Shown here in pieces: positions 4,787-56,566 of a stretch of 64,000 nucleotides of DNA. The stretch is from the NCBI GenBank assembly GCA_964457085.1, contig CAYWDM010000002.1, forward strand, positions 116,037 through 180,036. Direction: 5' to 3'. The notes beneath the pieces are model-generated. The model made no database searches and was not told where the DNA came from. It saw only the letters and a list, made by a program, of their open reading frames with translations. How positions within the stretch are numbered: position 1 is the first letter of the stretch; each line of letters begins with the position of its first letter. This DNA is from an uncultured Pseudomonadales bacterium (GTDB taxonomy: Bacteria > Patescibacteriota > Microgenomatia > UBA1400 > PJMF01). Position numbers and translations under genes: made by a program.

Positions 4787-4816
4787 AGGACTGGAGGCTG
4801 CTCAAGTCCTTTTTTT
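4787..4816 (+). terminator. Rho-independent terminator after dnaJ.
   Basis: AGGACU-loop-AGUCCU stem followed by a T7 run. It lies inside the track's N-terminal extension of nusA. Confidence 0.55.
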
Positions 4817-4848
4817 GTAAAAACAGCAAAAAAATAATAAGGAAATGT

Positions 4849-6117: not shown

Positions 6118-6213
6118 GTTATAGGTAATTTGGCGAAATTAGGTTGAGTGCGAAAATCGAGCAATTGGTTTTTGTAATTAACCTACATACAAAAGAGTTT
6201 TATAAGGAAACAC

Positions 6214-7719: not shown

Positions 7720-7731
7720 TTAGCCGATTAT

Positions 7732-8013: not shown

Positions 8014-8049
8014 TTGCTTGCTTTCCAAATTTACTGTAAATGAGTCGAT

Positions 8050-8077
8050 TTGATTTCTTCCGGTAACTCGGTATAAG
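8050..8077 (+). promoter_or_regulatory. Putative sigma70-like promoter (TTGATT-16-TATAAG) upstream of the 8113 ORF.
   Basis: Hexamer match and spacing seen in the sequence. Confidence 0.3.
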
Positions 8078-8112
8078 ATGTTGTTCTAGTACCTTATTTT
8101 TTTTGAAAGCAG

Positions 8113-13100: not shown

Positions 13101-13283
13101 AAAGGCTATGCACTCAACACTCAAGCAATCAATTTGAATTCAATAAAATCAGAGCCATTCAAGCAAATGCCAGGTGGTTCAGAAGATTCTGAACAGGTAG
13201 TGCTCAAAAAGAAACAAGAGCTTGAACAGAGACAGCAGAAACTAGTGATGGCAGCAACGCCTTCACCTCAGCAGTCATCGTAA
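10140..13283 (+). CDS. Large hypothetical protein (1047 aa), helical and charged, no recognisable catalytic motif.
   Basis: Uninterrupted 3.1-kb ORF with consistent composition and no signal peptide. Confidence 0.6.
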   Translation: MPNENIPFLKEIQKGYLPNAKNAESANAVFDLVADEAKSVMEMGEQAEVVSSAARQAINEVLKGEQVWTTVLESVQKKLMDGVGNMDSLRELRALQVFVKENLPILSQGRLEKSGTGEGARRERAEIVLEVQNMVVSSVAEKLADTKHLPPRITFVQSWQTAIPDLKRRLGVAGKTELSKEIDNLLDASTPSGNDALLQVNRMFSEAKITEFVARYEVKSEADSESATTMSPQGEVYAAFLQQQLESFDAGQHQIINTQVTQLEEQFLNDIFAGIWQRNGKLSKTLDELPDDRRGNRAISEIVKMSVEGGNLGDYLLALGQLSNEQRRIAFQNSYDAWNKVPRTAEEKSEAAKILLVAFDRETDGETNYAVEQLQKSAGNPDVVQLRAESKAELTKEAMGELTSDLFTIDLTNPSYRLYVPELVSKLIDKGVDTRRLAAAQLAKQEIFQTTITDILEKHMPKDVTQAQQFIDESRFALKNAQKLEYYRQGKDGFVIRKDLGERDNQVLERRKQQMFLVGFVRHLLNQPQHAPEAVTDMRQYFADAEKFGVTAKILIDIHNSVSTAIVAFNKKIEATSVGAYHRESAAIDFTDHMTRVMKIPPPLGVHMLTMTEAKGLENYGWGGEDRPSTGNVGIYTDNAEDSRDQVIAGYAVKDVLKRAQMKVDKSGIVPLLNTGAELDSFESRLARHESLLKPGFGGMYEGQQWHNVDRFDNLIKNDPYVDLQTKAAESLVEPDEQALKAAMEKLALTGKKGDELSSAVDSWGYHCENDYSRLGFAEKGLIRLGGGSSTLASEKHRYEQSAEQLTGEKFNLLESADRLRLRNTLEARKKAAQKKLATEIATKIKGISAKVVSGESMAAEYVKMMLKDPEMPSLEVVDYSQNYRTLKVIAADDINTVQTDPRLEVIYRTFQKAREAYGKRVYSKVNNLVANRAYGTETQAIEDAVGELRLKLGYTEARESMGYSREPSPPKVDLTPISRAIEPVLKKGYALNTQAINLNSIKSEPFKQMPGGSEDSEQVVLKKKQELEQRQQKLVMAATPSPQQSS

Positions 13284-23000: not shown

Positions 23001-24136
23001 GCAATGTTTTTGCCATCTCATTACCTCGTGGTATTGATAAAGGCCTAACGGTCTACTATCGAAAGTTGAAATCATTTGCTGATACCACAGAGCCGACGGA
23101 AGAAAATCGTCGTTGCAGAGTGAAGGTGGAAACATTAAATGGTCCATGGTCTGAGCTGTTGATTGCATTACGCGATAGTCCTTTAAATGAAAAACAAAAA
23201 GCCGACATTATCATTCGAGCTTGGTCTCAGCGGGGCTTTATCTATGATAAGTCAGAGGCAGGACATCGTAAGTACGACCCGTATGGCTCGATTGATAGCC
23301 CTGAGTTTATGAGTGCTATTCTTAATTTTGGAAATGGTACTTGTGGGCATGCGGAAAAAGGTTGGCAGGGTGCGGGGACTGCTTGTAACTTGGCGGTTCG
23401 AAAAGTTACCAGTTATCTTGCTGGTGCTAATGGCGGTTTCTCGATGCGTGAAAATTTACATGGCTTGATACAGGTCTACATTAAAGATAGGTGGGTATTG
23501 GTAGAGCCACAAGTCGGATATATAGATCCTGGATATGAGTTAGAAGAAATACCAGCTCCATATCGTGAGAAATTTACTCGTTTGATTGAGGCGATACCTA
23601 ACGCAAAAGTTACTTCCCCAGAGCGTTTATCAGCGTTGCCAGATGTGCTTTCTGAAAACACAGAAAATTACACCAGCATGATGGAAGAATTAAGAATGAA
23701 ATATGATGAATATTTTGGTGATGGAGAACAGCTCACGCTCAGTGACTTGATGGTAGCTGTGCGTTCCGGTTTTGTCCAATTTGACAAACGCAAACTAGCA
23801 CTCTCACTTGCTAAATATTCAGCTCTAACCTTAGCTGGGGCATTTGCAGTACATGAAATTACACCAATGATTCCGAAGTTAGCTGAAATGACATTACAGC
23901 TTTTGGACTCAATTCCTCCAGAAAAATTAAGAAATATAGCAATTGGAACCATAGTGTCCATAGTCGCAATATCATATTTAGGTACCGGGAAGATTGGATT
24001 TGAGATCGGAAAATATATTGAAAGTCGTCGGTTAAGTTTAGCTTTTGCTTCCGATGAAACAGCAGCACTTCCAGATAGTTCAAGTGATGGTGGTGAAGAG
24101 AGCCCTTTGCCTGCGATACTACCAGTAGTAGACTAG
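20066..24136 (+). CDS. Giant protein B2 (1356 aa), paralog of B1 with a transglutaminase-like Cys/His core and C-terminal transmembrane-like helices.
   Basis: Shares the motifs WPGFWYELLQGAYEYNDW, IRGDTGLRPHNV, SAHGRGMKISS, YAFWGWGNGDHGFNPRRSNDSLK, GNGTCGHAEKGW and LHGLIQVYIKDRWVLVEPQ with B1. Confidence 0.7.
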   Translation: MTLMDVLGFGGVMFRGSKKSGVDGVPPMIPVEMGDPQAELRNLGPESKVKGTSYNDQQNEVREMIDATKEKRWPGFWYELLQGAYEYNDWNRGLPRILVYYAGVAEPVSLTRFVSDRGRFFHRKVERVEIKNYIRGDTGLRPHNVAATLHEEKDNQVGLSAHGRGMKISSTAAAGHLAKGITFESCVPGIGAWFGRGEIARDEEDPRPSDTFQLRYNNNPALRAKETIFTVLEPNSAALKALSDLPKWFLPTNPAYPSYRLDAEPTATRPNKTTIYANQKFVGAENSLAFSERELNLFGNSGLKSEANAVEPARVEILPDNLTGKRRGKIDYVYVDGLRVAVEGAQFANVYAFWGWGNGDHGFNPRRSNDSLKLANAMNFLLGATLCRCPNPEVFLSILRSNLNDKATFEGGTGIFERHWYDLSKSMTGEAKAAMSAAWGQLTTEIGVKGRVYVTSEKESKQRAKREKKPTILMQQNCLAMLMVSRSDLRTVESVFEDEAKDAEAREAQLKWEKDKLIREKEELKKEAKNRDEYLKLEAAKEAEANAKKRTGIKEYAESTGEFLRVAAPDDPSIAVEMAKINLINLFMLNQGSFKLEKIGLFAKTGKLVIDLQMPELVTLPRNVKDMGPVGDFVLNFLAAGSTTATAEVRYVRNSEGVYFHLGRSMIDERIDKFGNFRIFVNQGSLDMTDKHLVRITLDLGENDETRFNGEVAKIFESLQKADGTPDVDRYLESQYYHDFPPGEDRLKEKRKMEAELQQYEKHLAEENRRRRRVGLPPLPSKYNAKSRFGGHDEFEDEPASGGRAKLPAQRDRKTLDRIRRSEERAIGDSGIDIQDAILSLMHPDARPGITTHGTEKRRRMVQESLSGNERLRNEAAARAREIFKRQLIPDCSMSSSEFSRVRPYLIDHIDDENFGTDDYDILSGFEFGQLSNLPKLRFNKPIGSGLGSLPCPPGYRPVGYYHPEGEIKGLHFSGNFERNVFAISLPRGIDKGLTVYYRKLKSFADTTEPTEENRRCRVKVETLNGPWSELLIALRDSPLNEKQKADIIIRAWSQRGFIYDKSEAGHRKYDPYGSIDSPEFMSAILNFGNGTCGHAEKGWQGAGTACNLAVRKVTSYLAGANGGFSMRENLHGLIQVYIKDRWVLVEPQVGYIDPGYELEEIPAPYREKFTRLIEAIPNAKVTSPERLSALPDVLSENTENYTSMMEELRMKYDEYFGDGEQLTLSDLMVAVRSGFVQFDKRKLALSLAKYSALTLAGAFAVHEITPMIPKLAEMTLQLLDSIPPEKLRNIAIGTIVSIVAISYLGTGKIGFEIGKYIESRRLSLAFASDETAALPDSSSDGGEESPLPAILPVVD

Positions 24137-26233: not shown

Positions 26234-28813
26234 ATGTCATATCCGACATACGGTAACACACTCCACCAAGATATTGCGGTGGGTGATAAGGTAGTACATA
26301 TTGAAATTGGCAAGTTCAGCCAACAGGCTGCTGCGGCAGTTTTGGCCACTTGTGGCGAGACCATGGTGCTCTGCACTGTTGGTTTGGGTCGTGAGACTGA
26401 ACTCGGATATTTTCCATTGTCAGTTGAGTTCGTTGAGAAACTCTATGCCGGTGGCATTATCAAGGGTTCTCGCTGGGTGAAGCGTGAGGGTCGACCAACT
26501 GATGAGTCTATTCTCAAAGGTCGAGTCGTTGATCGCACCATGCGACCATTGTTCCCAGATGGTTTAAAGAATGAAGTCCAGATCATTAACACTGTCTTTT
26601 CATATGACGGTGAAAATGATGCTGATATGGTAGGCATGATTGCAGCTTCGGTTGCATTGCAGATCAGTGAGATTCCTTTCGCAGGACCAATTTCTGGTAT
26701 GCGTATTGGCTATCGCAAAGCTGACGGCCAATTCTTGTTTAACCCAACTCAAACCGAGCGCAAAACTAGTGATCTAGACTTGATCGTTTCAGGTTCTGAC
26801 ACTAAAGTAGTGATGGTTGAGGCAGGTGCTAACGAAGTTGCTGAATCAGTGATTATCGAAGCCATCAGTAAAGCTCAAGAAATCTTAGGTGGCGTTTGTG
26901 CAACAATCACCAAGATTACTGAGCAAATTGGTAAGCCAAAATTTGCAGTCAAGACTTTGCCAGCAGAAGACGTGGCTCGCAACGACGCTTGGAAAGCAGC
27001 AATTCTCAAGAACTTCAAAAAAGAGATTCACGACATGACCATGAAGTTGGGTGTTTTGGAGCCAACTGGTGTCGAGGCATTTGTGCCTACAGTGACTGCT
27101 AAACTCAATGAGGGTTTAGATGCTGAAGCTGAGGGTGTGGTTTTAATCACCGACAAGCAAGCTAAGGGTTTTGTGTTTGATTTAATGCAAAAAGAAACTC
27201 GTCGTATGGTGATTGAGGACGGTGTTCGTCCCGATGGTCGCAAAGCCGATGAAATTCGCCCAATCTGGTGTGAAGTTGATGTTTTTGCACGCACTCACGG
27301 TAGTGCCATGTTCAAACGTGGTGCCACTCAAGCAGTTAGTGTTGTGACTTTAGGTAGTCCATCACTTGGTCAATATGTTGAAGATTTGGATGGCGAGTCG
27401 GTGCACCACTATATGCACCACTACAACATGCCTCCTTTCGCCTCTGGCGAAGCTGGTCGCATCGGTTCACCCAAACGTCGAGAAATTGGTCATGGTGCCC
27501 TAGCTGAGCGTGCCATCATGCCAATGTTGCCAACACAGGAAGAGTTCCCATACACCATTCGCGTGGTTAGTGAGATCTTGAGTTCCAATGGTTCAACTTC
27601 TCAAGCTTCAATCTGTGGTTCTACCATGTCATTAATGGCTGCAGGTGTGCCTTTGAAGAAACCAGTGGCAGGTATTGCTATGGGTTTGATGAGTGAGGGC
27701 GACAAAAACGTAGTGCTTTCCGATATCCAAGGTCTGGAAGATCACGATGGTGATATGGACTTTAAAGTGGCTGGTACCAAAGATGGTATTACCGCTTTGC
27801 AGATGGATATTAAGCTCACCGGTTTGAATTCAAAGATTCTCACCGAGGCTTTAGAGCAAGCACGCATCGGTCGCTTACACATCATGGACAAGATGTTAGC
27901 TTGTATTCCTGAGCCAAGAAAACAACTCAGTATCTACGCTCCAAAGATTCAACAGATCACCATTCCAGTTGGAAAGATTGGTGAGTTAATCGGACCAGGT
28001 GGCAAGATGATCAAGAGTATCATCGAGAAATCAGGTGCTGACATCGATGTTGATGAGGACGAAGAGCGTGGCTTGGGTATCGTTAACATCTCTTCACCAG
28101 ATCAAGAAAAGATTGATGTTGCAGTCAAAATGATTGAAGGCATTACTCGAGAAATCTTGGTTGGAGATGAGTTCGACGGTCCAGTTGTTCGAATTGAAGC
28201 ATACGGCTGTTTTGTAAACATCACTCCAGCAAAAGACGGTTTGGTACATGTCAGTGCTATGGCAACTGAATATGTCTCTGATCCAGAGTCTATCGTGAAG
28301 ATGGGCCAAGTGGTTCATGTTCGCGTCAGTGAGATCCAAGATGACGGCAAGATCAAACTCTCAATGTTAACCAAAGAACAAGAAGACGCTGCCAAACAAA
28401 GTGGCGGTAGTCGAGGTGGTTTCGGTGGTGACAGAGGTGGTGATCGCGGAGGTCGCTCAGGCGGCTTCAGTGGTGGACGCTCTGGTGGTTTCGATCGCGG
28501 TGGTGATCGAGGCGGCCGTGGAGGAGATCGTGGTAGTCGAGGTGGTTTCGGTGGTGACAGAGGTGGTGATCGCGGAGGTCGCTCAGGCGGCTTCAGTGGT
28601 GGACGCTCTGGTGGTTTCGATCGCGGTGGTGATCGAGGCGGCCGCAGTGACTTTGGAGGCAGTCGGGGTGGAGATCAGCTAAATCGCGATGCAAGTCGTG
28701 ATTCGAGTCGAGATGTTCAGCCCATCGTCAATGAAAATGCACCTGCAAAATCAGACACCACACGAGATCAGATGAACAACTTAAGTGACATTTTTCAAAG
28801 TAATTTGACCTAA
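26234..28813 (+). CDS. pnp: Polynucleotide phosphorylase with an unusual roughly 145-aa RGG/RGD-rich low-complexity C-terminal extension.
   Basis: Two RNase PH domains, KH (GKIGELIGPGGKMIK), S1 (VVRIEAYGCFVNI), then the GG(F/S)(D)RGG repeats. Confidence 0.93.
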   Translation: MSYPTYGNTLHQDIAVGDKVVHIEIGKFSQQAAAAVLATCGETMVLCTVGLGRETELGYFPLSVEFVEKLYAGGIIKGSRWVKREGRPTDESILKGRVVDRTMRPLFPDGLKNEVQIINTVFSYDGENDADMVGMIAASVALQISEIPFAGPISGMRIGYRKADGQFLFNPTQTERKTSDLDLIVSGSDTKVVMVEAGANEVAESVIIEAISKAQEILGGVCATITKITEQIGKPKFAVKTLPAEDVARNDAWKAAILKNFKKEIHDMTMKLGVLEPTGVEAFVPTVTAKLNEGLDAEAEGVVLITDKQAKGFVFDLMQKETRRMVIEDGVRPDGRKADEIRPIWCEVDVFARTHGSAMFKRGATQAVSVVTLGSPSLGQYVEDLDGESVHHYMHHYNMPPFASGEAGRIGSPKRREIGHGALAERAIMPMLPTQEEFPYTIRVVSEILSSNGSTSQASICGSTMSLMAAGVPLKKPVAGIAMGLMSEGDKNVVLSDIQGLEDHDGDMDFKVAGTKDGITALQMDIKLTGLNSKILTEALEQARIGRLHIMDKMLACIPEPRKQLSIYAPKIQQITIPVGKIGELIGPGGKMIKSIIEKSGADIDVDEDEERGLGIVNISSPDQEKIDVAVKMIEGITREILVGDEFDGPVVRIEAYGCFVNITPAKDGLVHVSAMATEYVSDPESIVKMGQVVHVRVSEIQDDGKIKLSMLTKEQEDAAKQSGGSRGGFGGDRGGDRGGRSGGFSGGRSGGFDRGGDRGGRGGDRGSRGGFGGDRGGDRGGRSGGFSGGRSGGFDRGGDRGGRSDFGGSRGGDQLNRDASRDSSRDVQPIVNENAPAKSDTTRDQMNNLSDIFQSNLT
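28411..28662 (+). repeat. Tandem direct repeat: 126-bp period, about 2.1 copies, 108 bp identical, encoding the RGG tail of PNPase.
   Basis: Sequence 28411-28518 is identical to 28537-28644; a third partial unit starts at 28663. Confidence 0.9.
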
Positions 28814-42672: not shown

Positions 42673-44499
42673 TTATTGGAAATCAACTGTTTTGTATTGT
42701 AAGTGATCTGGTGAGAGTTCAAATATTTTACTGTTAAATTGATTATGATAATCCCAGTTTTCGATTAGTTTCTCATTTAGACAAGCTCCTCTTTCGACAA
42801 AAACCCTTGAAACTAAGTTGCGATTGATGTGGCTAAAGTTGCAGATTGAATGGTAATCCTCACCAAATGGCAAAACTAGATCGAAATTGTTTGAATAAAC
42901 GGCATGTGTGTAAATTTTTTTGTGTAGAGTTTCATCAACAATAAGGCTAGCAAAATGTATGTTTCGATGAATAAGTACTGAGCTATCTACGTGCGAGACA
43001 ATCCACTGATAACTATCAGATTTGGACAGTTTGCCATTAGATATTCTCAGCCAATTATAGTTTTCTGACCAAGATGTTGTAAGAAATATAATTGTTAGTA
43101 TCATCAGTGCGACTCTAAAGATCTTTTCACTTACTTTATTATCTTGGCTTACTAGCTGAAGACCTACCCATAAAAATGAAATTGAACCGAATGATAAAAA
43201 TTTGTGTGAAAAATATCTCCAGGTTAGGAAGAAAGTACCAGTAATTATTATTAATTGTGTTAGAGTCAGCAAATAGATTGCTTGGTGCTTTTGTCGATAT
43301 TCCTTATTCATACTGTTTTTGACTAGAACTCCAAACAATGTTATGAATAACAATAGGGTTGGTATGACCTTCCAGGAGTTGTCATTAATTATTTTTTCCC
43401 AATATACTGAGTCTAGGTATGCTGGATTAAAATCATTGGGAATGGCACCTATAATTTGAGAGATTCTCTGAGCAGTCAGTGTATATTTGTTTTGACCGTA
43501 GATTGCGACTTCTTTTTCAATACTGGTGATATTAGGGTAATAAAATCCCAAAAGAAGAATCGTTACGAATATAAGTTGCTGCAATGTTAGCCAAGATTTT
43601 CGTTTAAATAACCTATATGCGTAATAAATCAAAAACGGTGCTAATAGTACTAGCGAATAGTAATATACGAGTCCTGTAATAAAAACTAACAAAGGCAGAA
43701 GAATCAACTTTGTGTCAAATGAGGGTAAAAATAATAATAGCATGACGAGAAATAATGATATCTCTTGCGATATAGAATCCATGCCAACAATAACGTGTAA
43801 CAATGGGTAACTGAAGCAAGCAATAATTGGTAGCCATGACCATTTTATTTTTGGCAAAAACTGTGTTGCTAGAGTGAGTGCAAGCAACAATGCATATGTA
43901 AAGAAGAATTTATGAATGCTGACAAAATGTGGCTGTGTCAGCATTACATCTTCAAACCCGTGTAAAAAAATTAACAAATAATGAGCACCGAGCGGATATC
44001 TATAATTCTCTGTAACTCGTCTGAGCGTCCCAAAAAAATGATCGTTTAAGTTGGAAGGACGTTCACTCAATGAAAAATCATTTATATATCGAGCTATTCT
44101 TTCATGGTTGTGATAATCACCATTCCCACCAAATGAAATAATTGTATTGTTGCTAATCTCGGCAAAACAAATAAAGAAAAACATGCTGACATATATAAGT
44201 AGATGTAACCAAATTTGTTTGGTGATTATTGGCTTGAGGTAAATGAGGCAAATTGCACCGAGTATTGACAATACTATATAAAATTCTGTTGTAAGAATTG
44301 TATTTAAGCTCACGAAATAACTCAGAGGATAAATCAGTAATAGGACTGCAATCCACCCAACGGAAGAAAAAAGTATGATGTCATTGATTGAAGCTTTTTC
44401 TATTTTTTTTCTTACGATTAGGGAATATCCACAAAAAGAAATTGAGCCCAAGAAAAGTATTAAAACAGTGAAGATGAAAAAACTAACTAAATAAAACAT
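42673..44499 (-). CDS. Polytopic membrane glycosyltransferase-like protein (GT-C-like, 608 aa) in an AT-rich islet.
   Basis: At least 12 hydrophobic helices plus a C-terminal soluble domain; markedly lower GC than the flanks; paired with a GT2. Confidence 0.6.
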   Translation of the reverse strand: MFYLVSFFIFTVLILFLGSISFCGYSLIVRKKIEKASINDIILFSSVGWIAVLLLIYPLSYFVSLNTILTTEFYIVLSILGAICLIYLKPIITKQIWLHLLIYVSMFFFICFAEISNNTIISFGGNGDYHNHERIARYINDFSLSERPSNLNDHFFGTLRRVTENYRYPLGAHYLLIFLHGFEDVMLTQPHFVSIHKFFFTYALLLALTLATQFLPKIKWSWLPIIACFSYPLLHVIVGMDSISQEISLFLVMLLLFLPSFDTKLILLPLLVFITGLVYYYSLVLLAPFLIYYAYRLFKRKSWLTLQQLIFVTILLLGFYYPNITSIEKEVAIYGQNKYTLTAQRISQIIGAIPNDFNPAYLDSVYWEKIINDNSWKVIPTLLLFITLFGVLVKNSMNKEYRQKHQAIYLLTLTQLIIITGTFFLTWRYFSHKFLSFGSISFLWVGLQLVSQDNKVSEKIFRVALMILTIIFLTTSWSENYNWLRISNGKLSKSDSYQWIVSHVDSSVLIHRNIHFASLIVDETLHKKIYTHAVYSNNFDLVLPFGEDYHSICNFSHINRNLVSRVFVERGACLNEKLIENWDYHNQFNSKIFELSPDHLQYKTVDFQ

Positions 44500-47032: not shown

Positions 47033-47665
47033 ATGCGTACCCAAATCAGCATTCCTCACATTAAACAGCAAAGCACTATTCGTGATATTGCAATCTTCGG
47101 AGGTGCTGATGTTGATGAGCTACATCCTCTGTATCAGGAAGTTTTCAAAGTTGCACGTTATTTGGCATATCACGGTAAGGTAATTATCGATGGTGGTGGT
47201 CCAGGAGTGATGAACGCAGCTACTCAGGGGGCAGAGTCAGTTGGTGGCCAGACTTTAGGTGTCACTTTTTATCCCAAGGACATGCCAAATTTCGAGGGCA
47301 GATTTGGTGAAAATAAAGTTGATAAGGAGATCCGTACTTCTAACTACATCGAGAGAATGTTTACCTTAATGTATCACGCAGATGCTTTTGTGATTTTTCA
47401 AGGTGGCACTGGCACTCTGAGTGAATGGGCAACAGCTTGGTTATTGGCTCATCTCTATTATGGGAACCACAAGCCAATTATTTTATATGGTGAATTTTGG
47501 CATGAGGTGATGCGGGTGATTAATGACAATTTTCTGATTGGTGAGTCAGAAAGAATGGTATACAAGATTGCCAACGATCAAGACCAGCTGATTGCAGCCT
47601 TAAGTGATTTTGAGGCTGAACTCGAAACTCGTTGTCAGTTGCCCAAGCGCCAAACAAACGAGTAG
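47033..47665 (+). CDS. LOG-family protein (TIGR00730 Rossmann-fold nucleotide-binding protein).
   Basis: GGGPGVMNA and FQGGTGTLSEW motifs. Confidence 0.8.
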   Translation: MRTQISIPHIKQQSTIRDIAIFGGADVDELHPLYQEVFKVARYLAYHGKVIIDGGGPGVMNAATQGAESVGGQTLGVTFYPKDMPNFEGRFGENKVDKEIRTSNYIERMFTLMYHADAFVIFQGGTGTLSEWATAWLLAHLYYGNHKPIILYGEFWHEVMRVINDNFLIGESERMVYKIANDQDQLIAALSDFEAELETRCQLPKRQTNE

Positions 47666-47715
47666 AATGACTTTGGCAACTTATTCACAGTATTAATTGG
47701 TTGCGGTATCTGCCT

Positions 47716-48642
47716 ATGTTTCATGTCATTTCAATTGGCTCTGCGTTAGTTGATATTTTTATCCACTCACAAAAGTTTGAGACTCAGTCAAATGCTGAAG
47801 GAAAATTGCTCTGTCAGATGCAAGGAGCAAAAGTCGACATTGAAGGTTTTAGAGTGTACACAGGTGGTGGTGCTAGTAATACTGCAGTAGGTTTCAGTCG
47901 ATTGGGTCTATCAAGTGCGGCACTTTGCGAAACTGGTCGAGATGAATTTGCCAGAATTGTTGTTTCAGATTTAGAAAAAGAAAATGTTTCCACTCAATTA
48001 GTAATCTCAGAGAAAAAGGAACAGACGGGTGGTTCAGTTATTTTGGTTGGGGCAAAAGGAAGCCGTACTGCATTAGTACACCGAGGTGCAGCTTCAATGT
48101 TGGATTCATTTGATATTCCGCCATATTGGATTTCACAGACACGTTGGGTGCATTTATCGAGTATCGGGGGCAGGCTGGAAACACTTGAACGTATCTTTAA
48201 GTTGGTTAAAAAAGTTGGAGATGTTGGTTTGTCTTGGAATCCGGGACAAGGTGAGTTGGCATTATTGAAAGAAGGTTCTCTAGCGGTTGAGTCCATCACT
48301 TGTACTGTTTTATTTTTAAACAAAGAAGAGTGGCGTCAGATTAGTGCACAACACGCTCAATTGCTTGAGCATATTCCACAAATCATTATCACCGACGGCA
48401 AAAATGGTGGTGATGCATACATTAATGGCAAACATAGTTGGCGATATTTGGCACTACCTGTTGAGTCAGTCGATGACACAGGAGCAGGTGATGCCTTTGC
48501 AGTGGGCTATGTTGCTGCACATTTGTCTGGCAAAAAACCTCAAGAGTCTATTGAATGGGCAGTAAAGAATGCCAGCTCTGTAGTCAGATTTTATGGTGCC
48601 AAACCTGGTTTACTCGATAAAAAACGAATAGAAAGTAACTAA
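47716..48642 (+). CDS. PfkB-family carbohydrate kinase (ribokinase-like).
   Basis: N-terminal ISIGSALVDIF and the C-terminal DTGAGDAF anion-hole motif. Confidence 0.8.
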   Translation: MFHVISIGSALVDIFIHSQKFETQSNAEGKLLCQMQGAKVDIEGFRVYTGGGASNTAVGFSRLGLSSAALCETGRDEFARIVVSDLEKENVSTQLVISEKKEQTGGSVILVGAKGSRTALVHRGAASMLDSFDIPPYWISQTRWVHLSSIGGRLETLERIFKLVKKVGDVGLSWNPGQGELALLKEGSLAVESITCTVLFLNKEEWRQISAQHAQLLEHIPQIIITDGKNGGDAYINGKHSWRYLALPVESVDDTGAGDAFAVGYVAAHLSGKKPQESIEWAVKNASSVVRFYGAKPGLLDKKRIESN

Positions 48643-48696
48643 TCATAAAGTAGAGGTTTGATAATTTCCCAAAAACTCTCTATCATGAGACTAACC

Positions 48697-49263
48697 ATGA
48701 AACGAATCATTTTTTTACTCGTATTTTTTTTGTTGGCATTTAGCCTCACAGCTTCATCTGCTTTGGCTGCAACTTTAAAACTAACTAGAATTGGAGCCTC
48801 CTCGACAGAGGGTCAGACTTTTCGAACTTGGTACTACCAGGGTTTAAATCCATTACTACAGGGAACCACAACCCCTGAAGCTCAAGTGAGCATCACGTTA
48901 AACAGTGCTAATAATAAAGTCACTGCTGATGAGACCGGTGATTGGAGTTTTCAACCAACCACACTCATTGCTGGTCAACATGATGTAACTATTGGATCTG
49001 ACGGTCAACAAATTGCATTTACACTCACCATCGATGACGGAACTGCCTCTAGTAGTGCGAGTACTAGTTCTACCACTACTACATCGAGTAGTAGCTCTGA
49101 ATCTGCAACAACTGAGAGTGGTGTAGGTGGAGTGGCGACTGATTCTGGTGAACTACCAGTAACCGGTGCTGTAAGTCAAACATTCTTCTTAGTATTGGCA
49201 GGTTTTTCAATCATGGGTTTGGGCATGGCCATTAAGGCAGTGCATCATGCTGAGGTTAGTTAA
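48697..49263 (+). CDS. Secreted Ser/Thr-rich protein with an LPxTG sortase sorting signal.
   Basis: Signal peptide MKRIIFLLVFFLLAFSLTASSALA; low-complexity S/T linker; C-terminal LPVTG plus a hydrophobic stretch and a charged tail. Start ambiguous (48658, 48685 or 48697). Confidence 0.75.
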   Translation: MKRIIFLLVFFLLAFSLTASSALAATLKLTRIGASSTEGQTFRTWYYQGLNPLLQGTTTPEAQVSITLNSANNKVTADETGDWSFQPTTLIAGQHDVTIGSDGQQIAFTLTIDDGTASSSASTSSTTTTSSSSSESATTESGVGGVATDSGELPVTGAVSQTFFLVLAGFSIMGLGMAIKAVHHAEVS

Positions 49264-49287
49264 TTTAGTAAAAATGGTTTTTGAGGT

Positions 49288-50346
49288 ATGTCCGATTTTC
49301 GTCAAGTTCTCCAACAAGAAATTGATGAGCTGAAGCAAAAAGCTGCAGCTGCTGTTTTGCCGGAACCAATGCGGGTGAAGGTGAACAAGGAAATAGTTGC
49401 GCTGGAGCGAAGTGTGGAGCTGGGAAGTTATGACGAAAAGTACGAAAAAGTCTCAAGATATGTTGATTGGGTACTGAAAATTCCTTGGCAGAATGAAAGT
49501 AAAGACACTTTAGACATTACCCAAACTCGTCAGATTTTTGACGAACATCATTATGGTTTAGAGGAGGTGAAGGATCGTTTTTTGGAGTATGTGTCAGTGC
49601 TGAAACTTCGTGCCAAACAAGATCCAGAAGCTTCATTTCGAGCTCCAATTTTACTATTGGTTGGTTTGGTGGGTACCGGTAAAACAACTTTTGCTTATTC
49701 ACTAGCTGAGGCATTAGGACGTCAAATTGTTCGTATTCCATTTGGTGGTATGGGTTCTGCTCGTGAACTGCGTGGTAACTCAAGACTGCTACTCGGATCA
49801 GAGCCAGGTCGAGTGATTAAAGGTGTTTGTGAGGCTGGAGTTAGAAATCCAGTGATCTTGCTTGATGAGATTGACCGCTCTGCAGAAGAAGCAAACATGG
49901 ATATCATGGGTGTTTTGGTCGAGTTGCTCGATCCAGCCCAGAACAACTCATTCGTTGATACCTACATCGATTTTCCAATTGATCTGAGTCATGCGATATT
50001 TATTGCTACCGCCAACAATACAGTTAAGATTGCTACAGCTGTGATGGATCGTATGGAAAAAATCACCATGCCTTCATATTCTGATGAAGAAAAAATCGTG
50101 ATTGCCAAGAAATATGTCTTGCCGGGGTTGTTGAAAGATGCTGGTCTTAAACCAGAGCAGTTTATTATCGAGGAGGATGTTTGGGCAAAAGTGGTTCGGC
50201 CACTCGGATTTGATATGGGTATCCGTACTCTGCAAAGAACGCTCCATGGTGCAGTACGAAAAGCAGTACGAATTATTGTTGAACGTGGATTTACTGAGAT
50301 TGTGATTACAGTTGATAATTCGAAGATTTTCTTACCGCAGTATTAA
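49288..50346 (+). CDS. Lon-like AAA+ ATPase module lacking both the N-terminal LAN domain and the C-terminal Ser-Lys protease domain.
   Basis: YVDWVLKIPWQNESKD, EDHYGLEEVKDRFLEY, Walker A GLVGTGKTT, Walker B ILLDEIDR, LLDPAQNNSF and FIATAN are all Lon signatures. The ORF ends after the AAA lid (352 aa). Confidence 0.75.
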   Translation: MSDFRQVLQQEIDELKQKAAAAVLPEPMRVKVNKEIVALERSVELGSYDEKYEKVSRYVDWVLKIPWQNESKDTLDITQTRQIFDEHHYGLEEVKDRFLEYVSVLKLRAKQDPEASFRAPILLLVGLVGTGKTTFAYSLAEALGRQIVRIPFGGMGSARELRGNSRLLLGSEPGRVIKGVCEAGVRNPVILLDEIDRSAEEANMDIMGVLVELLDPAQNNSFVDTYIDFPIDLSHAIFIATANNTVKIATAVMDRMEKITMPSYSDEEKIVIAKKYVLPGLLKDAGLKPEQFIIEEDVWAKVVRPLGFDMGIRTLQRTLHGAVRKAVRIIVERGFTEIVITVDNSKIFLPQY

Positions 50347-50394
50347 TTCTTTAAGCAGCAATTGTGGCGTCGCTACTTTACAGGCGAAGCATAA

Positions 50395-50919
50395 TTGCTC
50401 ACAATAACACTAACTATGACAGAATTAGAAAAAGTAACAAAAGTATCAGAACTCCATGAAAGACTTGGGTATCTAGGTGCAAAAACAGCAGAGTTTTTTG
50501 CGAAAATGCATAGTCTATGGGCAGAAGGCAGAGGTAGCCAATTACTGCAGACTCAGTTTGTGGATATGGCTGCTGGTCAGCAAGATATGATTGCTGTAGA
50601 TTCAGATGTTTCAGAATCAACTGTTGTAGAACCAGCAACTATTGAGTCATCAGATCTCAGACCAGCTCCAGCAGAAAGTCATGTAGTAGAATCAGCTCCA
50701 AAAATGACTTCCAGAGTACTTTTAGCCACTCTTCGTAGAAAAATTGCAGCTGGACTACCGATACTTGGTGCTGAATCGGTAGTGGCTACTTCCAACAAAA
50801 AAGAATTAGATTTAGATGACGCAGAAGACAAACATCCAATCAGGGATTTTCTAGCGAATTTTAAAACTCAAATTTCTCAAGGTTTATCACCTCTACTGTT
50901 AACTCCAGTACGAGCCTAG
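50395..50919 (+). CDS. Hypothetical protein (174 aa).
   Basis: ORF between Lon-like and UDG. No Lon protease motif. Confidence 0.45.
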   Translation: MLTITLTMTELEKVTKVSELHERLGYLGAKTAEFFAKMHSLWAEGRGSQLLQTQFVDMAAGQQDMIAVDSDVSESTVVEPATIESSDLRPAPAESHVVESAPKMTSRVLLATLRRKIAAGLPILGAESVVATSNKKELDLDDAEDKHPIRDFLANFKTQISQGLSPLLLTPVRA

Positions 50920-50920
50920 G

Positions 50921-51550
50921 ATGAGTCAGACTCAGTTACAACAACTCCAAACTTCACTTGAAGAGGCTGCCGCTGAAGGAAAATTGCCCCTAGCAATGAA
51001 ACTTGAAGATATTGTCATGGGCGAGGGTCCAGCTACGGCTAGTATCATGCTGATCGGCGAAGCACCGGGATATCATGAATCAGTACAGCGTCGCCCATTT
51101 GTAGGTGTTTCTGGCCAGCTACTTCGAAAAACATTGCTGGCGGTTGGGCTAAAACCAGAATTGGTATATATCAGTAATATTGTTAAGGTTCGACCACCAG
51201 ATAATCGAGACCCATCAGATATTGAAATTGAGGCCTTTAAGCCTTTTCTAGATCGAGAAATTGAGATTCTGGCACCTAAGTTAATAATTACGCTTGGTCG
51301 ATTTAGTATGGCTAAGTTTTTGCCAGATGTCCGAATCTCAGCAGTACATGGTAAATTGCATAAGATTGAGTGGAATGGTGAAAAACTATTTGTTTTGCCA
51401 ATGTATCATCCTGCAGCTGCACTGCGTTCGGGAGCGATGAAAGCAGCTTTTTTGGCTGACTTTGAAAAAATACCAAAAATAGTAGTTTGGATAGATGAAC
51501 AGTCACAGTTGGCTAATGACGTTGCTTCTGTAAAGGCAGCACTTTTCTAG
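50921..51550 (+). CDS. Uracil-DNA glycosylase, family 4.
   Basis: LIGEAPGYHE...RPFVGVSGQLL motif. Confidence 0.85.
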   Translation: MSQTQLQQLQTSLEEAAAEGKLPLAMKLEDIVMGEGPATASIMLIGEAPGYHESVQRRPFVGVSGQLLRKTLLAVGLKPELVYISNIVKVRPPDNRDPSDIEIEAFKPFLDREIEILAPKLIITLGRFSMAKFLPDVRISAVHGKLHKIEWNGEKLFVLPMYHPAAALRSGAMKAAFLADFEKIPKIVVWIDEQSQLANDVASVKAALF

Positions 51551-51568
51551 ACATGTTAAGATAATTGT

Positions 51569-52327
51569 ATGGTGATGTTCCTCGTGTTAATTCCGATGTT
51601 GGTGGTGATTAGTTCAATTCTCATCTATCAATTCAATGGTCGAAAAGAATTTGTTAAGTTTGATTTAGTGCAGTTTTTATATGCTTTCTTTTTTGTGCCA
51701 GTGATGTTTATTTGGTTAAAAAGTTTATTGTTTTATCTACTTCGCAGAGAATTAGATCTGCATCTCTCAGTAACTGACATTTTTGCAGCAGACACCGCTT
51801 TTTCGGTAATGTTCTTATTTTTATATGCATTTATTGTGATTCACTCACTGACGAAAAGCTTTGAATTAAAGCGAGAACATGATCCACTGTATGACTTGAT
51901 GAAAGATTCGGAATATTTTCATCTTTGGATTTCGCACATCGTGTTTAATTTTGGCATGACTTTGATTGTGAGTGTGCTGTCCGTCACAAATTTATTTATA
52001 CCTATCACTACTACAATTAATCACCCATTTTTTTACATGCTACTTAGTTTTGGTTTGATTTTTGGAATTGCATTATTCGTTTTTACCTGGCTGTCTAATT
52101 TTTCAGCCAACTTCGTGCGAGTAATGAAGATTTTTTATGGTGTGATCTTTACCATACACGTAGGTTTATATATTACAATTTACCCAGGATTTGATAATCG
52201 ATATGGTATATTCTGGGTGACGGTTACAGCACTGAGCTCATTCATGTTTTGTTCATTATTTTTTGAACGGTTTGAAAGGCCAATGAACTGGATTCAACGA
52301 TTACATTACAAATTCTTTAAATCCTGA
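51569..52327 (+). CDS. Hypothetical polytopic membrane protein.
   Basis: Six to seven hydrophobic helices. Confidence 0.5.
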   Translation: MVMFLVLIPMLVVISSILIYQFNGRKEFVKFDLVQFLYAFFFVPVMFIWLKSLLFYLLRRELDLHLSVTDIFAADTAFSVMFLFLYAFIVIHSLTKSFELKREHDPLYDLMKDSEYFHLWISHIVFNFGMTLIVSVLSVTNLFIPITTTINHPFFYMLLSFGLIFGIALFVFTWLSNFSANFVRVMKIFYGVIFTIHVGLYITIYPGFDNRYGIFWVTVTALSSFMFCSLFFERFERPMNWIQRLHYKFFKS

Positions 52328-52337
52328 AGGAGAAAAT

Positions 52338-53999
52338 ATGTCAGATTTACGCTTAATTCCACTTGGTGGCATGGGTAACGTTACCCAAAATATGTATGTA
52401 TATGAATATGAGGATGAGATGCTGCTCGTCGATTGTGGTATCGGATTTCCCGATGTCTACATGCCTGGAGTTGATGTTTTAATTCCCGATATTTCATACA
52501 TTCTTAAACAAGTGCAACTTGGCAAGACAATAGTTGGTATGGTGTTGAGTCATGGTCATGATGACCATATCGGTGCATTACCATATCTCTTGCCAGAGAT
52601 GCCTTCATTTCCAATCTATGGTTCGCCATTAACTGCTGGGTTTGCAAAACAACGTATCTCGGACAAGTTAGATTCTAAGGAAATTACTGTTTTAACTGAT
52701 AGAGTTCCAGTAAAAATCGGCAAATTCTTCCGAGTTACCACATTAGCCATGACTCACTCGGTGCCTGACACCAAACACTTGGTGATCGAGACTCCAGTTG
52801 GATTGGTGTATCACGGTTCAGATTTTAAACTCGACACTAACCCGGTTGACGGTGTTTTGCCTGATTATGCTGCTATAGAACAAGTTGGATCAAAGTCAGT
52901 GATGCTGATGTTAATTGATAGCTTACGTTCAGAACGCAGCGAGTGGGGTAAGTCAGAGTCGACCGTTGGTCCAGTGTTAGAGGATTTAATGTCTCAGACC
53001 AAAGGAAAATATGTGGTGACATTAATGAGTTCACATATTCATCGCATCCAGCAAGTTATTCGTGCCGCTGAAAAACTGGGTCGCAAAATCGTCTTGGTTG
53101 GTCGCTCAGTCGAGCAAAATGTTAAGGTTTCAGTTGAACTTGGCAAACTAAAAGTAGATAGAGAAACACTCGTAGATAAGAAATACATTGCTGATTACTC
53201 AGATAACAAACTTTGCATTATCATTGCCGGTAGTCAGGGACAAGAAGGTTCTTCACTAGTGCGAGCTGTATATGGTGAGCATCGTGAGGTGCAGCTCGGC
53301 AGCTCAGACACAGTGGTCTTTTCAGCCGACGTTATTCCTGGAAATGAGGTGCCGTATTACCGTGCTATTGATGAGTTGTCTCGAAATGGAATTCAAGTAA
53401 TTTATCCAGATATTAATAAAGAAGTACATCAATCAGGTCACGCTGCAGCTCCAGAGCAACAAAAGTTGCTAGGTATGGTGAGGCCAAAGTTTGTAATGCC
53501 AATTGGTGGTGCTGATCGACATCGAGCTCGTTTCACTCAAGTAGTGGCAAAGCCAATTGGATACACAGATGATCGCATTTTAATTCCAAAACCAGGTGAG
53601 GTTTTGAGTTTTAACAATGGTGAATTCCATGTGGCTGAAACACTAGTGCTCAATCCAAGTGTGGTTGATGGACTGGGAATTGGAGACGTGGGCCCAGTAG
53701 TTCTGTCCGATCGCTTGTCACTTGCTCAAGCGGGAATGATTGTGATTATTATTCCCAAAAAAGCTGGTCAGTTGGATCTCAAACAAATTGAGGTGGTTTC
53801 TCGAGGTTTTGTGTTCATGAAACAAGCAGATGAAGTGGTGAAGTTTATTAAAACTCAGACCGCAGAAATTGCCATCAAAGAACAAAACTCAAAAGAAGCA
53901 GATCTTAAAAAACTGATTGAGAGAAGACTTGCTCGCAAACTCTATAAAATCATTAAACGTGAGCCATTGATTGACGTGACCATATTGAACGTTGATTAG
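52338..53999 (+). CDS. rnj: Ribonuclease J (metallo-beta-lactamase/beta-CASP).
   Basis: HGHDDHIG motif; beta-CASP and C-terminal domain; 553 aa. Confidence 0.88.
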   Translation: MSDLRLIPLGGMGNVTQNMYVYEYEDEMLLVDCGIGFPDVYMPGVDVLIPDISYILKQVQLGKTIVGMVLSHGHDDHIGALPYLLPEMPSFPIYGSPLTAGFAKQRISDKLDSKEITVLTDRVPVKIGKFFRVTTLAMTHSVPDTKHLVIETPVGLVYHGSDFKLDTNPVDGVLPDYAAIEQVGSKSVMLMLIDSLRSERSEWGKSESTVGPVLEDLMSQTKGKYVVTLMSSHIHRIQQVIRAAEKLGRKIVLVGRSVEQNVKVSVELGKLKVDRETLVDKKYIADYSDNKLCIIIAGSQGQEGSSLVRAVYGEHREVQLGSSDTVVFSADVIPGNEVPYYRAIDELSRNGIQVIYPDINKEVHQSGHAAAPEQQKLLGMVRPKFVMPIGGADRHRARFTQVVAKPIGYTDDRILIPKPGEVLSFNNGEFHVAETLVLNPSVVDGLGIGDVGPVVLSDRLSLAQAGMIVIIIPKKAGQLDLKQIEVVSRGFVFMKQADEVVKFIKTQTAEIAIKEQNSKEADLKKLIERRLARKLYKIIKREPLIDVTILNVD

Positions 54000-54070
54000 A
54001 CAAGTGGTTTGTAAACCAGCTTTTTGCGAGATGTGGTAAAGACACACCTCGACGTGTTACTATAAATGCA

Positions 54071-54310
54071 ATGTTTTATTTTATTGCATTAGTTATTTTG
54101 CAAACGATCTTGTTTATTGAGTTGGGATTACTGTTTTTACGGGTACTGGGACGTCGGAAAACAAAGTATGGCGGGCTCGGCAAATCTTGTGCTTCCCTCC
54201 AATGTTTTTTTGCATGGTTGTCTCGGTTAATTGGCTATTTGTTTATTACTTTGGCAGCATATGTATTGTCGATGGGGATTTTGCAAGCATTGGCTGTGTA
54301 CAATATTTAA
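54071..54310 (+). CDS. Small membrane protein (79 aa).
   Basis: Two hydrophobic helices; weak support. Confidence 0.3.
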   Translation: MFYFIALVILQTILFIELGLLFLRVLGRRKTKYGGLGKSCASLQCFFAWLSRLIGYLFITLAAYVLSMGILQALAVYNI

Positions 54311-54382
54311 TTTTTATTGACAGTAGCACAATATCATTATATCCTATAATAATTAGAATTCAGTGACGCGGGCACGCGTATT

Positions 54383-56566
54383 ATGCCCAGAAGAAAGAAG
54401 TTAAAACCCCTACATCTCGATGTCAAACCTGAGACAATTTCCTCAATTGCCGCAGTTGTTTTAGTGATGGTTGGTCTATTAGTGATGGTTTCGTTCACTG
54501 GGCAAGGTCAGTTGCTGTCTGCCATCAATCAATTCTTGGGTTTTAAATTTGGTTTTTCGACACTTTTTTTGCCATTTATTTTTATTTCTTCAGGCTTAGT
54601 ACTATTTCGCACCAAATGGAAATTCACTAAGCCACACGTCTTGCTCGGAACCATTTTATTGGGTTTAGCCACTATGGGGTTATTCCAAACTGGACAGATT
54701 GGCGAAGAAACGTTTGTTAACTTGGCTGCACTCATCAGTGTGGCTGGCACGTATGTGTTATTTAGTGCCATCGCAATCACTGGTTGGTTGATTTTGACTC
54801 AACTTTCTTTAGCAGAATTACTCGAGCTTTTTGAAAAGATGGGAAATAAAGTTCCCACTAAATTACCCACGACTACAGAAGATTTATTTGTCAGTGCTGG
54901 GGCCACCGAGAAAAAGTCTGGATTTTCCTTGCCAAAATTGAGTCTAGGTTTTGGCTCGCTTAAATCTGGTGACACTAAAGATGAGCCTACTGTTGAAGAG
55001 GAAAAAACAGAAAAAACCGTGGCAGACAAAAAGATAAATCAACTAAAAAAACTACCAGTGGGCACTTCTCTTGATGGTACTGCGATCGAAACTTCGTCAC
55101 ACTCACCAGCTATTTGGGAGTATCCGCCACTATCATTGCTTTCTAATAAAGGTGGTGGTCAAGCAGATCGTGGTGATATCCGCAGCAACGCTCAGATTAT
55201 TGAAAACACCTTAGACTCATTTGGACTTAAAGCAAAGGTAGTAGAGGTGAACAAAGGTCCGGCAATTACGCAATATGCTTTGGAGATTGCTCGCGGTACC
55301 AAACTTTCAAAAATTACTGGATTGTCAAATGACTTAGCACTGGCGTTGGCCGCAACTACTGGTCAGGTTCGTATTGAGGCTCCAATCGCTGGTAAAAATT
55401 TAGTTGGTGTCGAAGTGCCCAACCATTCATCTCAATATGTAACTTTGCGAGAGATGTTGGCGAGTAAAGCTATGAAAGATGCACATTCGAAGTTGGCAGT
55501 CTCATTGGGAATTGGTGTTTCTGGCGAACACGTGATGGCGGATATCGCCAAGATGCCACACCTACTGATTGCAGGTTCAACTGGGTCAGGTAAATCGGTT
55601 TGTGTGAATGCATTTCTGTGTTCAATTTTATTTAGAGCCAGTCCTGATGAGGTTAAACTCATTTTGGTCGATCCAAAACGAGTGGAGTTGACTGGATATA
55701 ACGACATCCCTCACTTATTAACTCCAGTGATCACTGAGCCAGGAAAAGTGGTGTCTGCTCTTAAGTGGGCAGCCAACTTGATGGACAAACGGTACAAACA
55801 ACTCCAAGAAGTTGGAGTTAAAAATATCTCTGATTACAACGAACTTGCTGGATTGGTGGCGATGCCAAACATCGTGATTGTGATTGATGAATTGGCCGAT
55901 ATTATGTTGTTCGCTCCAAGTGAGGTTGAAGAAAACATTACTCGGTTGGCACAAATGGCTCGTGCAGTCGGCATCCATTTGGTGTTGGCAACACAGCGGC
56001 CGTCGGTAGATGTTATCACTGGTTTAATCAAAGCTAACATCCCAACTCGCATTGCATTCAATGTGTCCTCGGTGACTGATTCTCGGGTTATTTTGGATAA
56101 TCCTGGTGCTGAGAAACTACTCGGTCGAGGTGACATGCTGTATTTGCCTCCAGATAGGGCTAAGCCATTGCGTGTTCAGGGTACTTTTGTAACCGATGCT
56201 GAAATCAAGAATCTAATTAGTTTCTTGAAGACTCAGGGATACCGACCTCAATATGAAGATGAGGTGGTTAACAAATACAAGGCAACCATGTCAAAGGGAA
56301 GTGGTGGCGGCAGTAGTATGGGCGGTGAGAATGGTGAAAATCGAGATGAGTTATTTGCAGAAGCAGCTCGTTTATTCTCGAGTTATGACAAGGCCTCGTC
56401 ATCATTGATTCAGCGACGGATGTCTGTGGGTTATGCCCGTGCAGCTCGGATTCTTGATCAACTCTATGAAGCAGGTTTTGTCGGTCCAGCAGATGGCAGC
56501 AAACCTCGTGAAGTTAATGGCACTAAAATCATGGAGTATCTCGCCAATCACATGCCGGAAGAGTAA
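54383..56566 (+). CDS. ftsK: DNA translocase FtsK/SpoIIIE.
   Basis: N-terminal transmembrane helices, Walker A GSTGSGKS, LVLATQRPSVDVI, and a C-terminal gamma winged-helix domain. Confidence 0.92.
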   Translation: MPRRKKLKPLHLDVKPETISSIAAVVLVMVGLLVMVSFTGQGQLLSAINQFLGFKFGFSTLFLPFIFISSGLVLFRTKWKFTKPHVLLGTILLGLATMGLFQTGQIGEETFVNLAALISVAGTYVLFSAIAITGWLILTQLSLAELLELFEKMGNKVPTKLPTTTEDLFVSAGATEKKSGFSLPKLSLGFGSLKSGDTKDEPTVEEEKTEKTVADKKINQLKKLPVGTSLDGTAIETSSHSPAIWEYPPLSLLSNKGGGQADRGDIRSNAQIIENTLDSFGLKAKVVEVNKGPAITQYALEIARGTKLSKITGLSNDLALALAATTGQVRIEAPIAGKNLVGVEVPNHSSQYVTLREMLASKAMKDAHSKLAVSLGIGVSGEHVMADIAKMPHLLIAGSTGSGKSVCVNAFLCSILFRASPDEVKLILVDPKRVELTGYNDIPHLLTPVITEPGKVVSALKWAANLMDKRYKQLQEVGVKNISDYNELAGLVAMPNIVIVIDELADIMLFAPSEVEENITRLAQMARAVGIHLVLATQRPSVDVITGLIKANIPTRIAFNVSSVTDSRVILDNPGAEKLLGRGDMLYLPPDRAKPLRVQGTFVTDAEIKNLISFLKTQGYRPQYEDEVVNKYKATMSKGSGGGSSMGGENGENRDELFAEAARLFSSYDKASSSLIQRRMSVGYARAARILDQLYEAGFVGPADGSKPREVNGTKIMEYLANHMPEE

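Follow-up and report, generated by a model that had tools for sequence, protein, structure and literature searches.

A conserved Lon-type AAA+ ATPase without a protease domain in Microgenomates and Dojkabacteria

We analyzed a 64-kb stretch of DNA (the window; positions 116,037 to 180,036 of contig CAYWDM010000002.1, GenBank assembly GCA_964457085.1) in which the open reading frame (ORF) 49288..50346, on the forward strand with an ATG start and a TAA stop, encodes a 352-residue relative of the Lon protease. We found that the gene is one member of a large clade of protease-less Lon modules in Microgenomates and Dojkabacteria (Patescibacteria, also known as CPR, the candidate phyla radiation). 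As judged by alignment, the family retains every residue that ATP binding and hydrolysis require, the trans-acting arginine finger among them, and does not retain the pore loops with which Lon grips its substrates. On somewhat better than even grounds, we regard the product as a functional, self-standing Lon-derived AAA+ ATPase that would act as an ATP-hydrolysing, non-proteolytic remodeller or chaperone.

Architecture of the 352-residue protein

The Pfam search of the protein returned AAA at residues 122 to 260 (E = 4.7e-17) and Lon_lid at residues 283 to 333 (E = 2.5e-7). The NCBIfam profile TIGR00763 ('lon') matched with E = 6e-91, over profile positions 252 to 568 of 795 only, and the score of 306 bits is about half of the family cut-off of 608; for NF008053 the score was 235 versus a cut-off of 891. 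The match to LonA is confined to the last helices of the N-terminal region and the AAA+ module. The top solved structures were LonA proteins, from B. subtilis (3m6a, E = 7e-70) and T. thermophilus (7p6u, residues 249 to 571), and further solved relatives were M. taiwanensis 4YPL and the E. coli AAA+ fragment 6N2I. An AlphaFold2 (AF2) model (predicted local distance difference test, pLDDT, 79) gave template modelling (TM) scores of 0.73 to 0.80 on Lon AAA+ modules and a target-normalized TM score of 0.80 against 6N2I. In residues 1 to 111 the model contains helices at 2-21, 26-45, 49-64, 77-87 and 92-111. An earlier reading made without database searches (the sequence-only reading) had proposed that the protein matches Lon from the helices before the AAA+ domain through the AAA+ core, and the Pfam, TIGR00763 and structural results agree with it. 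Three of the strings quoted in that reading, YVDWVLKIPWQNESKD, LLDPAQNNSF and FIATAN, are present, whereas EDHYGLEEVKDRFLEY was a slight misreading of DEHHYGLEEVKDRFLEY.

Like LonA (MEROPS S16; TIGR00763; 3M6A, 7P6U and 4YPL), to which it is ~38-42% identical, the window protein has the NTD3H helices and the whole AAA+ module. Alignment confirmed that all ATPase catalytic residues, those of the Walker and sensor motifs included, are intact: the protein carries K132, D193/E194, N243, R255, R313 and Lon_lid as expected of a LonA-type AAA+ module, and 60 residues lie between the Walker A Lys and the Walker B Asp, the same spacing as in LonA. Its AAA domain, helical lid, Walker A and B motifs, sensor-1 and trans arginine finger are those of the HCLR clade (HslU/ClpX/Lon/RuvB) of the AAA+ superfamily. 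On the other hand, the protein lacks the S16 protease domain, the LON substrate-binding N-domain, the pore-loop tyrosine and the RGDP motif, and it scores below the family cut-off; its Walker A motif reads GLVG where LonA has GPPG. The C-terminal tail corresponds to the AAA-to-protease linker of LonA, and the protein stops exactly at that domain boundary.

The window was searched for Lon domains in all six frames, by tblastn with nine Lon queries (E<=10) and by unfiltered profile hidden Markov models (HMMs). Neither method found a Lon_C domain (PF05362) or a LON N-domain in the 64-kb window. The top Lon_C profile score was a 37-residue chance match within IF-2 (E = 0.025), and full-length Lon queries matched the window only via their residues ~244 to 587. 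The same searches detected no Lon relic downstream of 50346 in any frame, and neither an in-frame protease domain nor an adjacent split gene for one lies downstream in the window. The absence of a protease domain from the 352 residues, noted in the sequence-only reading, is thus borne out by the Pfam search of the protein and the six-frame searches of the window. That reading had overlooked the missing N-terminal substrate-binding domain (PF02190), of which no match was found in the protein, the lon profile match beginning at position 252.

Conservation, clade and motor residues

The 120 best database clusters are 351 to 389 residues long (all but three 351 to 354) and 74-100% identical to the query; none contains Lon_C, and their source labels are Pacebacteria, Woesebacteria and Patescibacteria. 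A scan covering one genome for each GTDB species turned up at least 251 relatives. We compared 80 of these loci, each 68-79% identical, which together with a few others, syntenic and close to the query, make up the 84 related loci used here. In these loci, no other gene of the syntenic block is as well conserved as the Lon-ATPase gene, whose median identity is 74%, compared with 38-67% for its block neighbors (62% for FtsK and 58% for RNase J). In a comparison with a relative whose Lon gene is 90% identical, for which synonymous divergence (dS) is saturated, the nonsynonymous divergence (dN) of the gene was 0.077, the lowest among eight genes (0.11 for FtsK and 0.16 for RNase J). The protease-less Lon gene is under strong purifying selection. 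No Lon_C domain was found within ±10 kb of the homolog in the 84 loci.

We also searched a database of 1.84 billion representatives exhaustively for Lon modules. Besides canonical Lons, the query's clade held ~25 clusters of Lon modules without Lon_C, many of them 350 to 670 residues long. In a neighbor-joining (NJ) tree of 204 Lon modules, built with home-made HMMs for Lon_C and the module, the query's group comprised 34 leaves, 0 of which had a protease domain. A profile search with the clade added 120 more clusters of 348 to 608 residues, all without Lon_C; the taxa named in their labels below 'bacterium' are Dojkabacteria, Microgenomates, Shapirobacteria and Patescibacteria. The labels of the clade overall are Pacebacteria, Woesebacteria, Shapirobacteria, Microgenomates and Dojkabacteria. 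Its longer members have low-complexity Q/P-rich extensions. No member ends more than ~10 residues from the AAA-to-protease linker, and the last residue is often aromatic. The full-length Lons nearest to the query share 38-42% identity with it, and the named ones come from unrelated phyla. The idea that the chromosomal slot was once occupied by a full-length, ancestral Lon was considered and rejected, the NJ sister P0250 lying in an unrelated context.

The motor residues were counted over distinct sequences, 221 protease-less and 158 with a protease domain. The Walker B Asp-Glu pair, the sensor-1 Asn and the arginine finger are each present in 221/221 and 158/158 sequences, respectively; the corresponding counts are 220/221 and 158/158 for the Walker A Lys and 219/221 and 157/158 for the sensor-2 Arg. 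At the pore-loop-1 position, all 158 sequences with a protease domain have Tyr, versus 14% aromatic residues in the protease-less sequences, where Leu (98), Ile (48), His (13), Val (11) and Asn (9) are among the residues found. The RGHRRTY[IV]G of LonA becomes RGxSRL[LIV]LG in the protease-less family (RGNSRLLLG in the window protein), x-Ser-Arg-Leu replacing the His-Arg-Arg-Thr beside the tyrosine, and the RGDP motif of pore loop 2 is lost. The new loop, S-R-L-(L/I/V)-L-G, is strictly conserved within the window's subfamily; in other protease-less subfamilies the pore loop is polar and variable. Conservation above the LonA level was also seen in the N-terminal three-helix region (residues 39 to 61), of which the segment LERSVELGSYDEKYEKVSRY (residues 39 to 58) is almost invariant across the protease-less family, and in the tail N-x-K-I-F-L-P-x-Y. 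Table 1 lists the features of the gene.

Table 1. Features of the Lon-type ATPase gene, in window coordinates
Feature	Residues	Coordinates	Strand	Basis
Protease-less Lon-type AAA+ ATPase gene	352 residues	49288..50346, stop codon included	+	
Helical region, C-terminal part of LonA HI(CC): end of long helix and three-helix bundle NTD3H	1-110	49288..49617	+	lon profile match from position 252; AF2 helices; conservation
Walker A GLVGTGKTT, K132; LonA counterpart GPPGVGKTS	126-134	49663..49689	+	motif alignment
Remodelled pore loop 1, ELRGNSRLLLGSEPGR; Tyr equivalent L168; LonA eIRGHRRTY[IV]GamPG	160-175	49765..49812	+	alignment
Walker B ILLDEIDR, D193 and E194	190-197	49855..49878	+	alignment; spacing criterion PMC9569914
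Pore-loop-2 region, SAEEANMDIMGV; LonA 'x-RGDP' motif and aromatic (Trp431 in MtaLonA) lost	198-209	49879..49914	+	alignment; PMC8503904
Sensor-1 Asn (TAN motif)	243	50014..50016	+	alignment
Arg finger (DRME motif), acting across the subunit interface	255	50050..50052	+	alignment
Alpha-helical lid subdomain (Pfam Lon_lid)	263-340	50074..50307	+	Pfam, alignment
Sensor-2 Arg (GIR), inside the lid subdomain	313	50224-50226	+	alignment
Conserved C-terminal tail, TVDNSKIFLPQY; N344, I347, F348 and P350 invariant	341-352	50308..50343	+	conservation

In MtaLonA, Tyr397 and Trp431 both touch the translocating substrate and both are needed for degradation (PMC8503904). The sequence-only reading had offered, as one of two explanations, a Lon-derived unfoldase or chaperone acting without proteolysis. 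The results support a non-proteolytic ATPase; 'unfoldase' is unsupported, because the translocation tyrosine of pore loop 1 and the RGDP of pore loop 2 are replaced (PMC8503904).

Candidate functions and known systems

A LonA ancestor would have lost its N-terminal substrate-binding domain and, at the C terminus, its Ser-Lys protease domain, with clean breaks at the domain boundaries, while the last HI(CC) helices and the complete nucleotide-binding and lid subdomains were kept. The protein may assemble into an ATP-hydrolysing ring, an oligomer being implied by the conserved trans-acting arginine finger, and would spend ATP on a non-degradative job such as the chaperone-like holding or remodelling of proteins or complexes, and not on processive threading into a protease chamber. 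The job of the motor is probably other than feeding a protease. Weak, low-grip polypeptide engagement is possible in the window's subfamily, in view of the aliphatic Leu-(Leu/Ile/Val)-Leu sequence conserved in its pore loop. LONP1 offers a precedent for protease-independent Lon activity that supports the non-proteolytic reading: its anti-aggregation activity needs ATP hydrolysis and does not need protease activity (PMC8368198).

Several points weigh against this reading. L167 and L169 are present in 120/120 window-subfamily sequences, and a hydrophobic loop also fits a still-translocating motor. Much of the stability of the LonA hexamer comes from the protease ring, and a closed ring may not form without it. 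For every family member, we infer the ATPase activity, the oligomeric state and the substrate alike. The searches for a protease domain or a docking peptidase were confined to the window and the ±10-kb loci. The LONP1 of the precedent still has its N-domain, which the 352-residue protein lacks, and a 2026 preprint assigns the chaperone-like activity of LONP1 to the N-domain and calls that activity ATPase-independent.

Two Lon forms with a reduced set of activities or domains invite comparison. The proteolytic fragment E. coli Lon(235-584) (6N2I) likewise consists of the C-terminal part of HI(CC) and the AAA+ module, and crystallises as an ADP-bound open hexameric spiral (PMC6722904). However, it is a laboratory fragment with canonical pore loops, whereas the window protein is a natural conserved product with remodelled loops. 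LonC (e.g., MtaLonC) has also lost one of the two Lon activities (PMC3391209, PMC9569914), as a mirror image: LonC kept the protease and lost the ATPase residues, and the window family did the opposite.

An unlikely alternative is an ATP-dependent protease encoded by two genes, in which the protein would supply the ATPase and dock a peptidase encoded elsewhere in the genome (a stand-alone Lon_C, or a ClpP-like or HslV-like partner), perhaps via the conserved tail that ends in N-x-K-I-F-L-P-x-Y-COOH, in the manner of HslU-HslV and ClpX-ClpP. The exact end of the protein at the AAA-to-protease linker, the invariant tail residues and the common aromatic last residue are consistent with docking, and a stand-alone AAA+ protein with a separate peptidase is an established design (HslUV, ClpXP and PAN-20S). 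HslU and ClpX of the HCLR clade are, like the window protein, self-standing AAA+ gene products without a protease domain in the same polypeptide. But these two have a conserved aromatic pore loop, a defined element for docking and a peptidase gene that co-occurs with them and is usually adjacent, none of which was found here in the loci examined. The aromatic pore-loop residue used by such partner unfoldases is lost, and the clade shows little conservation at its position. Within ±10 kb, the 84 close loci contain neither Lon_C nor another conserved peptidase gene, and none recurs in 17 divergent loci, where L089 alone has M16 and M23 peptidase genes; within this ±10-kb range, a cognate peptidase gene was found in none of ~100 loci. 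Because the tail is homologous to the ordinary LonA linker, its conservation may be inherited and need not mark a new docking motif.

Slightly less likely is a remodeller linked to nucleic acids, in which RNA, DNA or the enzymes encoded nearby would be the new targets of the motor (PNPase and RNase J in RNA decay; UDG and FtsK in DNA transactions). The gene has a fixed place, pnp – gene – (udg) – rnj – ftsK, which is kept from 37% to 90% identity. In the 84 close loci the gene order is RpiB – RPE – LOG – PfkB – (surface protein) – Lon-ATPase – UDG – (membrane protein) – RNase J – FtsK, with RNase J downstream in 77/84. Among 17 loci chosen for members of 37-56% identity, the gene follows rpsO-pnp directly or closely, precedes RNase J and FtsK, or both, in 14 (L085-L088, L090, L092-L094, L096-L099, L102 and L173); the exceptions are L089, the short L091, and L095, which is a close Pacebacteria-type locus (76% identical). 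By comparison, pnp, rnj or ftsK neighbors were found in none of ~69 canonical-Lon loci of the same scan. Lon itself binds DNA (6n2i was deposited as 'DNA-binding ATP-dependent protease La'), and RuvB of the same AAA+ clade is a DNA motor. However, the synteny is only weak functional evidence for a possible link with RNA decay or chromosome enzymes, because the block is a mixed housekeeping array, and the order nusA-infB-rpsO-pnp ... rnj-ftsK is also roughly conserved in Firmicutes, as on the B. subtilis map; the adjacency may be inherited. The protein has gained no nucleic-acid-binding domain, and a basic shift of the isoelectric point (pI), considered as a sign of nucleic-acid binding, was not found: the module pI is acidic, with a median of 5.9 (5.5 for the window protein) versus 6.2 for canonical Lon modules.

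A further proposal, to which we give similarly little credence, is that the sole Lon homolog of Microgenomates and Dojkabacteria is this protease-less motor, switched to a non-degradative task coupled to PNPase, RNase J, UDG and FtsK, possibly as, for example, the ATP-driven remodeller of a minimal RNA degradosome without a dedicated helicase. If true, Lon-derived AAA+ machines would gain a new functional class.

It is still less probable that the genomes also encode a full-length Lon and that the 352-residue protein mixes into or stacks on its ring as a regulator. A survey that reported a single 'Lon' family across 911 CPR genomes, only 56% of whose members have the full architecture (Meheust et al. 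2019), speaks for such a pairing; it lumps both forms and does not show which lineage has which. Natural proteins with two or three tandem Lon-type AAA+ modules and one Lon_C, e.g., P0122, suggest that stacked or paired Lon modules are structurally viable. They resemble the window protein in having Lon-type AAA+ modules not directly joined to a protease domain, but the protease domain is still in the same chain, and their modules branch apart from the protease-less clade in the NJ tree. Canonical Lon was found in none of the fetched CPR loci, and the origin of the closest full-length Lons in unrelated phyla also speaks against a shared ring.

The tandem-module proteins are an observation in their own right. 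They make up 34 or so of the 150 best representatives (P0121-P0128, P0131-P0139, P0142, P0145, P0151-P0157 and others), are 860 to 3900 residues long and end in a single Lon_C; P0122 has 1113 residues (NCBI MFC1854773.1, Candidatus Dependentiae). Such a 'double- or triple-ring Lon' is absent from the Lon classifications consulted, e.g., PMC9569914, and bears on the published idea that the HI(CC) of LonA is the remnant of a second AAA+ module (PMC6722904). In addition, the locus L163 (metagenome contig Ga0101944_10005183) has adjacent Lon-like genes at 3448-6042 and 6064-8475. The first encodes 865 residues with a Lon AAA+ module and neither a Lon_C match nor a canonical pore-loop match; the second, immediately after it, is a canonical 804-residue Lon.

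The other explanation of the sequence-only reading, a degraded lon, and with it a frameshift from sequencing or assembly or a wrongly called ORF, has the bare absence of a protease domain in a single window as its sole support and can practically be dismissed, because the 351- to 354-residue architecture recurs at 70-90% identity with identical start, stop and length across hundreds of independent assemblies, dN is the lowest of the block, no Lon_C relic follows and the ATPase residues are intact.

All Lon proteases have been described as an A domain followed by a P domain, in subfamilies A, B, C and BA (PMC9569914). Our search of the literature on Lon in Patescibacteria/CPR and on protease-less Lon found no paper on a conserved protease-less Lon family, whose only annotations to date are "AAA family ATPase" or "Lon protease"; the family is invisible to the Lon classification because that classification is built on the protease domain. 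It amounts to a natural separation-of-function experiment, in which the motor is very strongly constrained while substrate-binding domain, protease and gripping tyrosine have all been discarded. The family is relevant to the chaperone-like, protease-independent role of Lon, a matter of long debate (PMC8368198, PMC7801493), and to proteostasis in the smallest bacterial genomes. Mycoplasma, on the other hand, has retained a complete Lon, which is one of the two ATP-dependent proteases essential to it (PMC7737663). Annotations that infer "ATP-dependent proteolysis by Lon" in the lineages with the protease-less form are probably wrong.

Neighboring genes

The window is ordinary chromosomal housekeeping DNA of the Microgenomates type of CPR, with genes for DnaJ, NusA, IF-2, PNPase, Suf, Ddl, Mur ligase and AlaRS. 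The order in the window, with insertions and all on the forward strand, is DnaJ, NusA, IF-2 ... PNPase ... Lon-ATPase, UDG, RNase J, FtsK. Even Patescibacteria lineages in which the Lon-ATPases are only 37-56% identical share the long-range order dnaJ-nusA-infB ... rpsO-pnp - Lon-ATPase - (udg) - rnj - ftsK; its blocks in the window are 3890-7719, 26234-28813 and 49288-56566, and ~20 kb (the Suf operon, Ddl, Mur ligase and pentose-phosphate genes) is inserted between pnp and the ATPase gene.

The next ORF downstream (50395-50919, probable start ATG 50416) is small and acidic and lies between the Lon-ATPase gene and UDG. The sequence-only reading had held that it supplies no protease domain, and this is the case: the ORF has no Pfam or NCBIfam match and no Lon_C similarity, and the 84 related loci contain no homolog of it. 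The same slot in the closest relative (L170/L171, 11166-11585) is occupied by an ORF of 139 residues that is only 30% identical to the window ORF, whereas the flanking genes are 70-90% identical and the Lon-ATPase gene 90%. The GC content of the window ORF at third codon positions (GC3) is 0.20 versus 0.30-0.35 for the neighbors. As a candidate for the missing protease domain it was rejected; it is a very fast-evolving, lineage-specific small gene, and not a partner or missing domain.

The upstream ORF (48658-49263) encodes 201 residues with a signal or transmembrane start, a Ser/Thr-rich stretch and a C-terminal LPVTG followed by a hydrophobic anchor, from which it is predicted to be an LPXTG/sortase-type surface protein. 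A weak match to a bacterial immunoglobulin-like domain (Big_13) fell below the Pfam cut-off. The protein is poorly conserved, with a median identity of 38%, and was detected in 28/84 loci.

The PADLOC defense models gave weak generic AAA matches only (best DolB, 27.8 bits), and the neighbors are housekeeping genes; an anti-phage defense ATPase (BrxL, IetA/IteA etc.) was rejected, there being no significant model match and no defense-island context. A promoter and terminator scan of 47600-52400 was uninformative, its counts being no higher than those of shuffles.

Five large ORFs of 608 to 1530 residues (1479-3839, 10140-13283, 14155-18747, 20066-24136 and 42673-44499) have no Pfam match except for a transglutaminase-like core in the 1530-residue protein, and are typical of the uncharacterised giant proteins of CPR. 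Finally, many GTDB genome records with this Patescibacteria-type Lon-ATPase gene and typical CPR synteny bear the titles 'uncultured Pseudomonadales', 'Vitreimonas', 'Methylococcaceae' or 'Limisphaerales' (L007, L009, L013-L015, L022, L026, L044, L065 and others), and these organism names look wrong.

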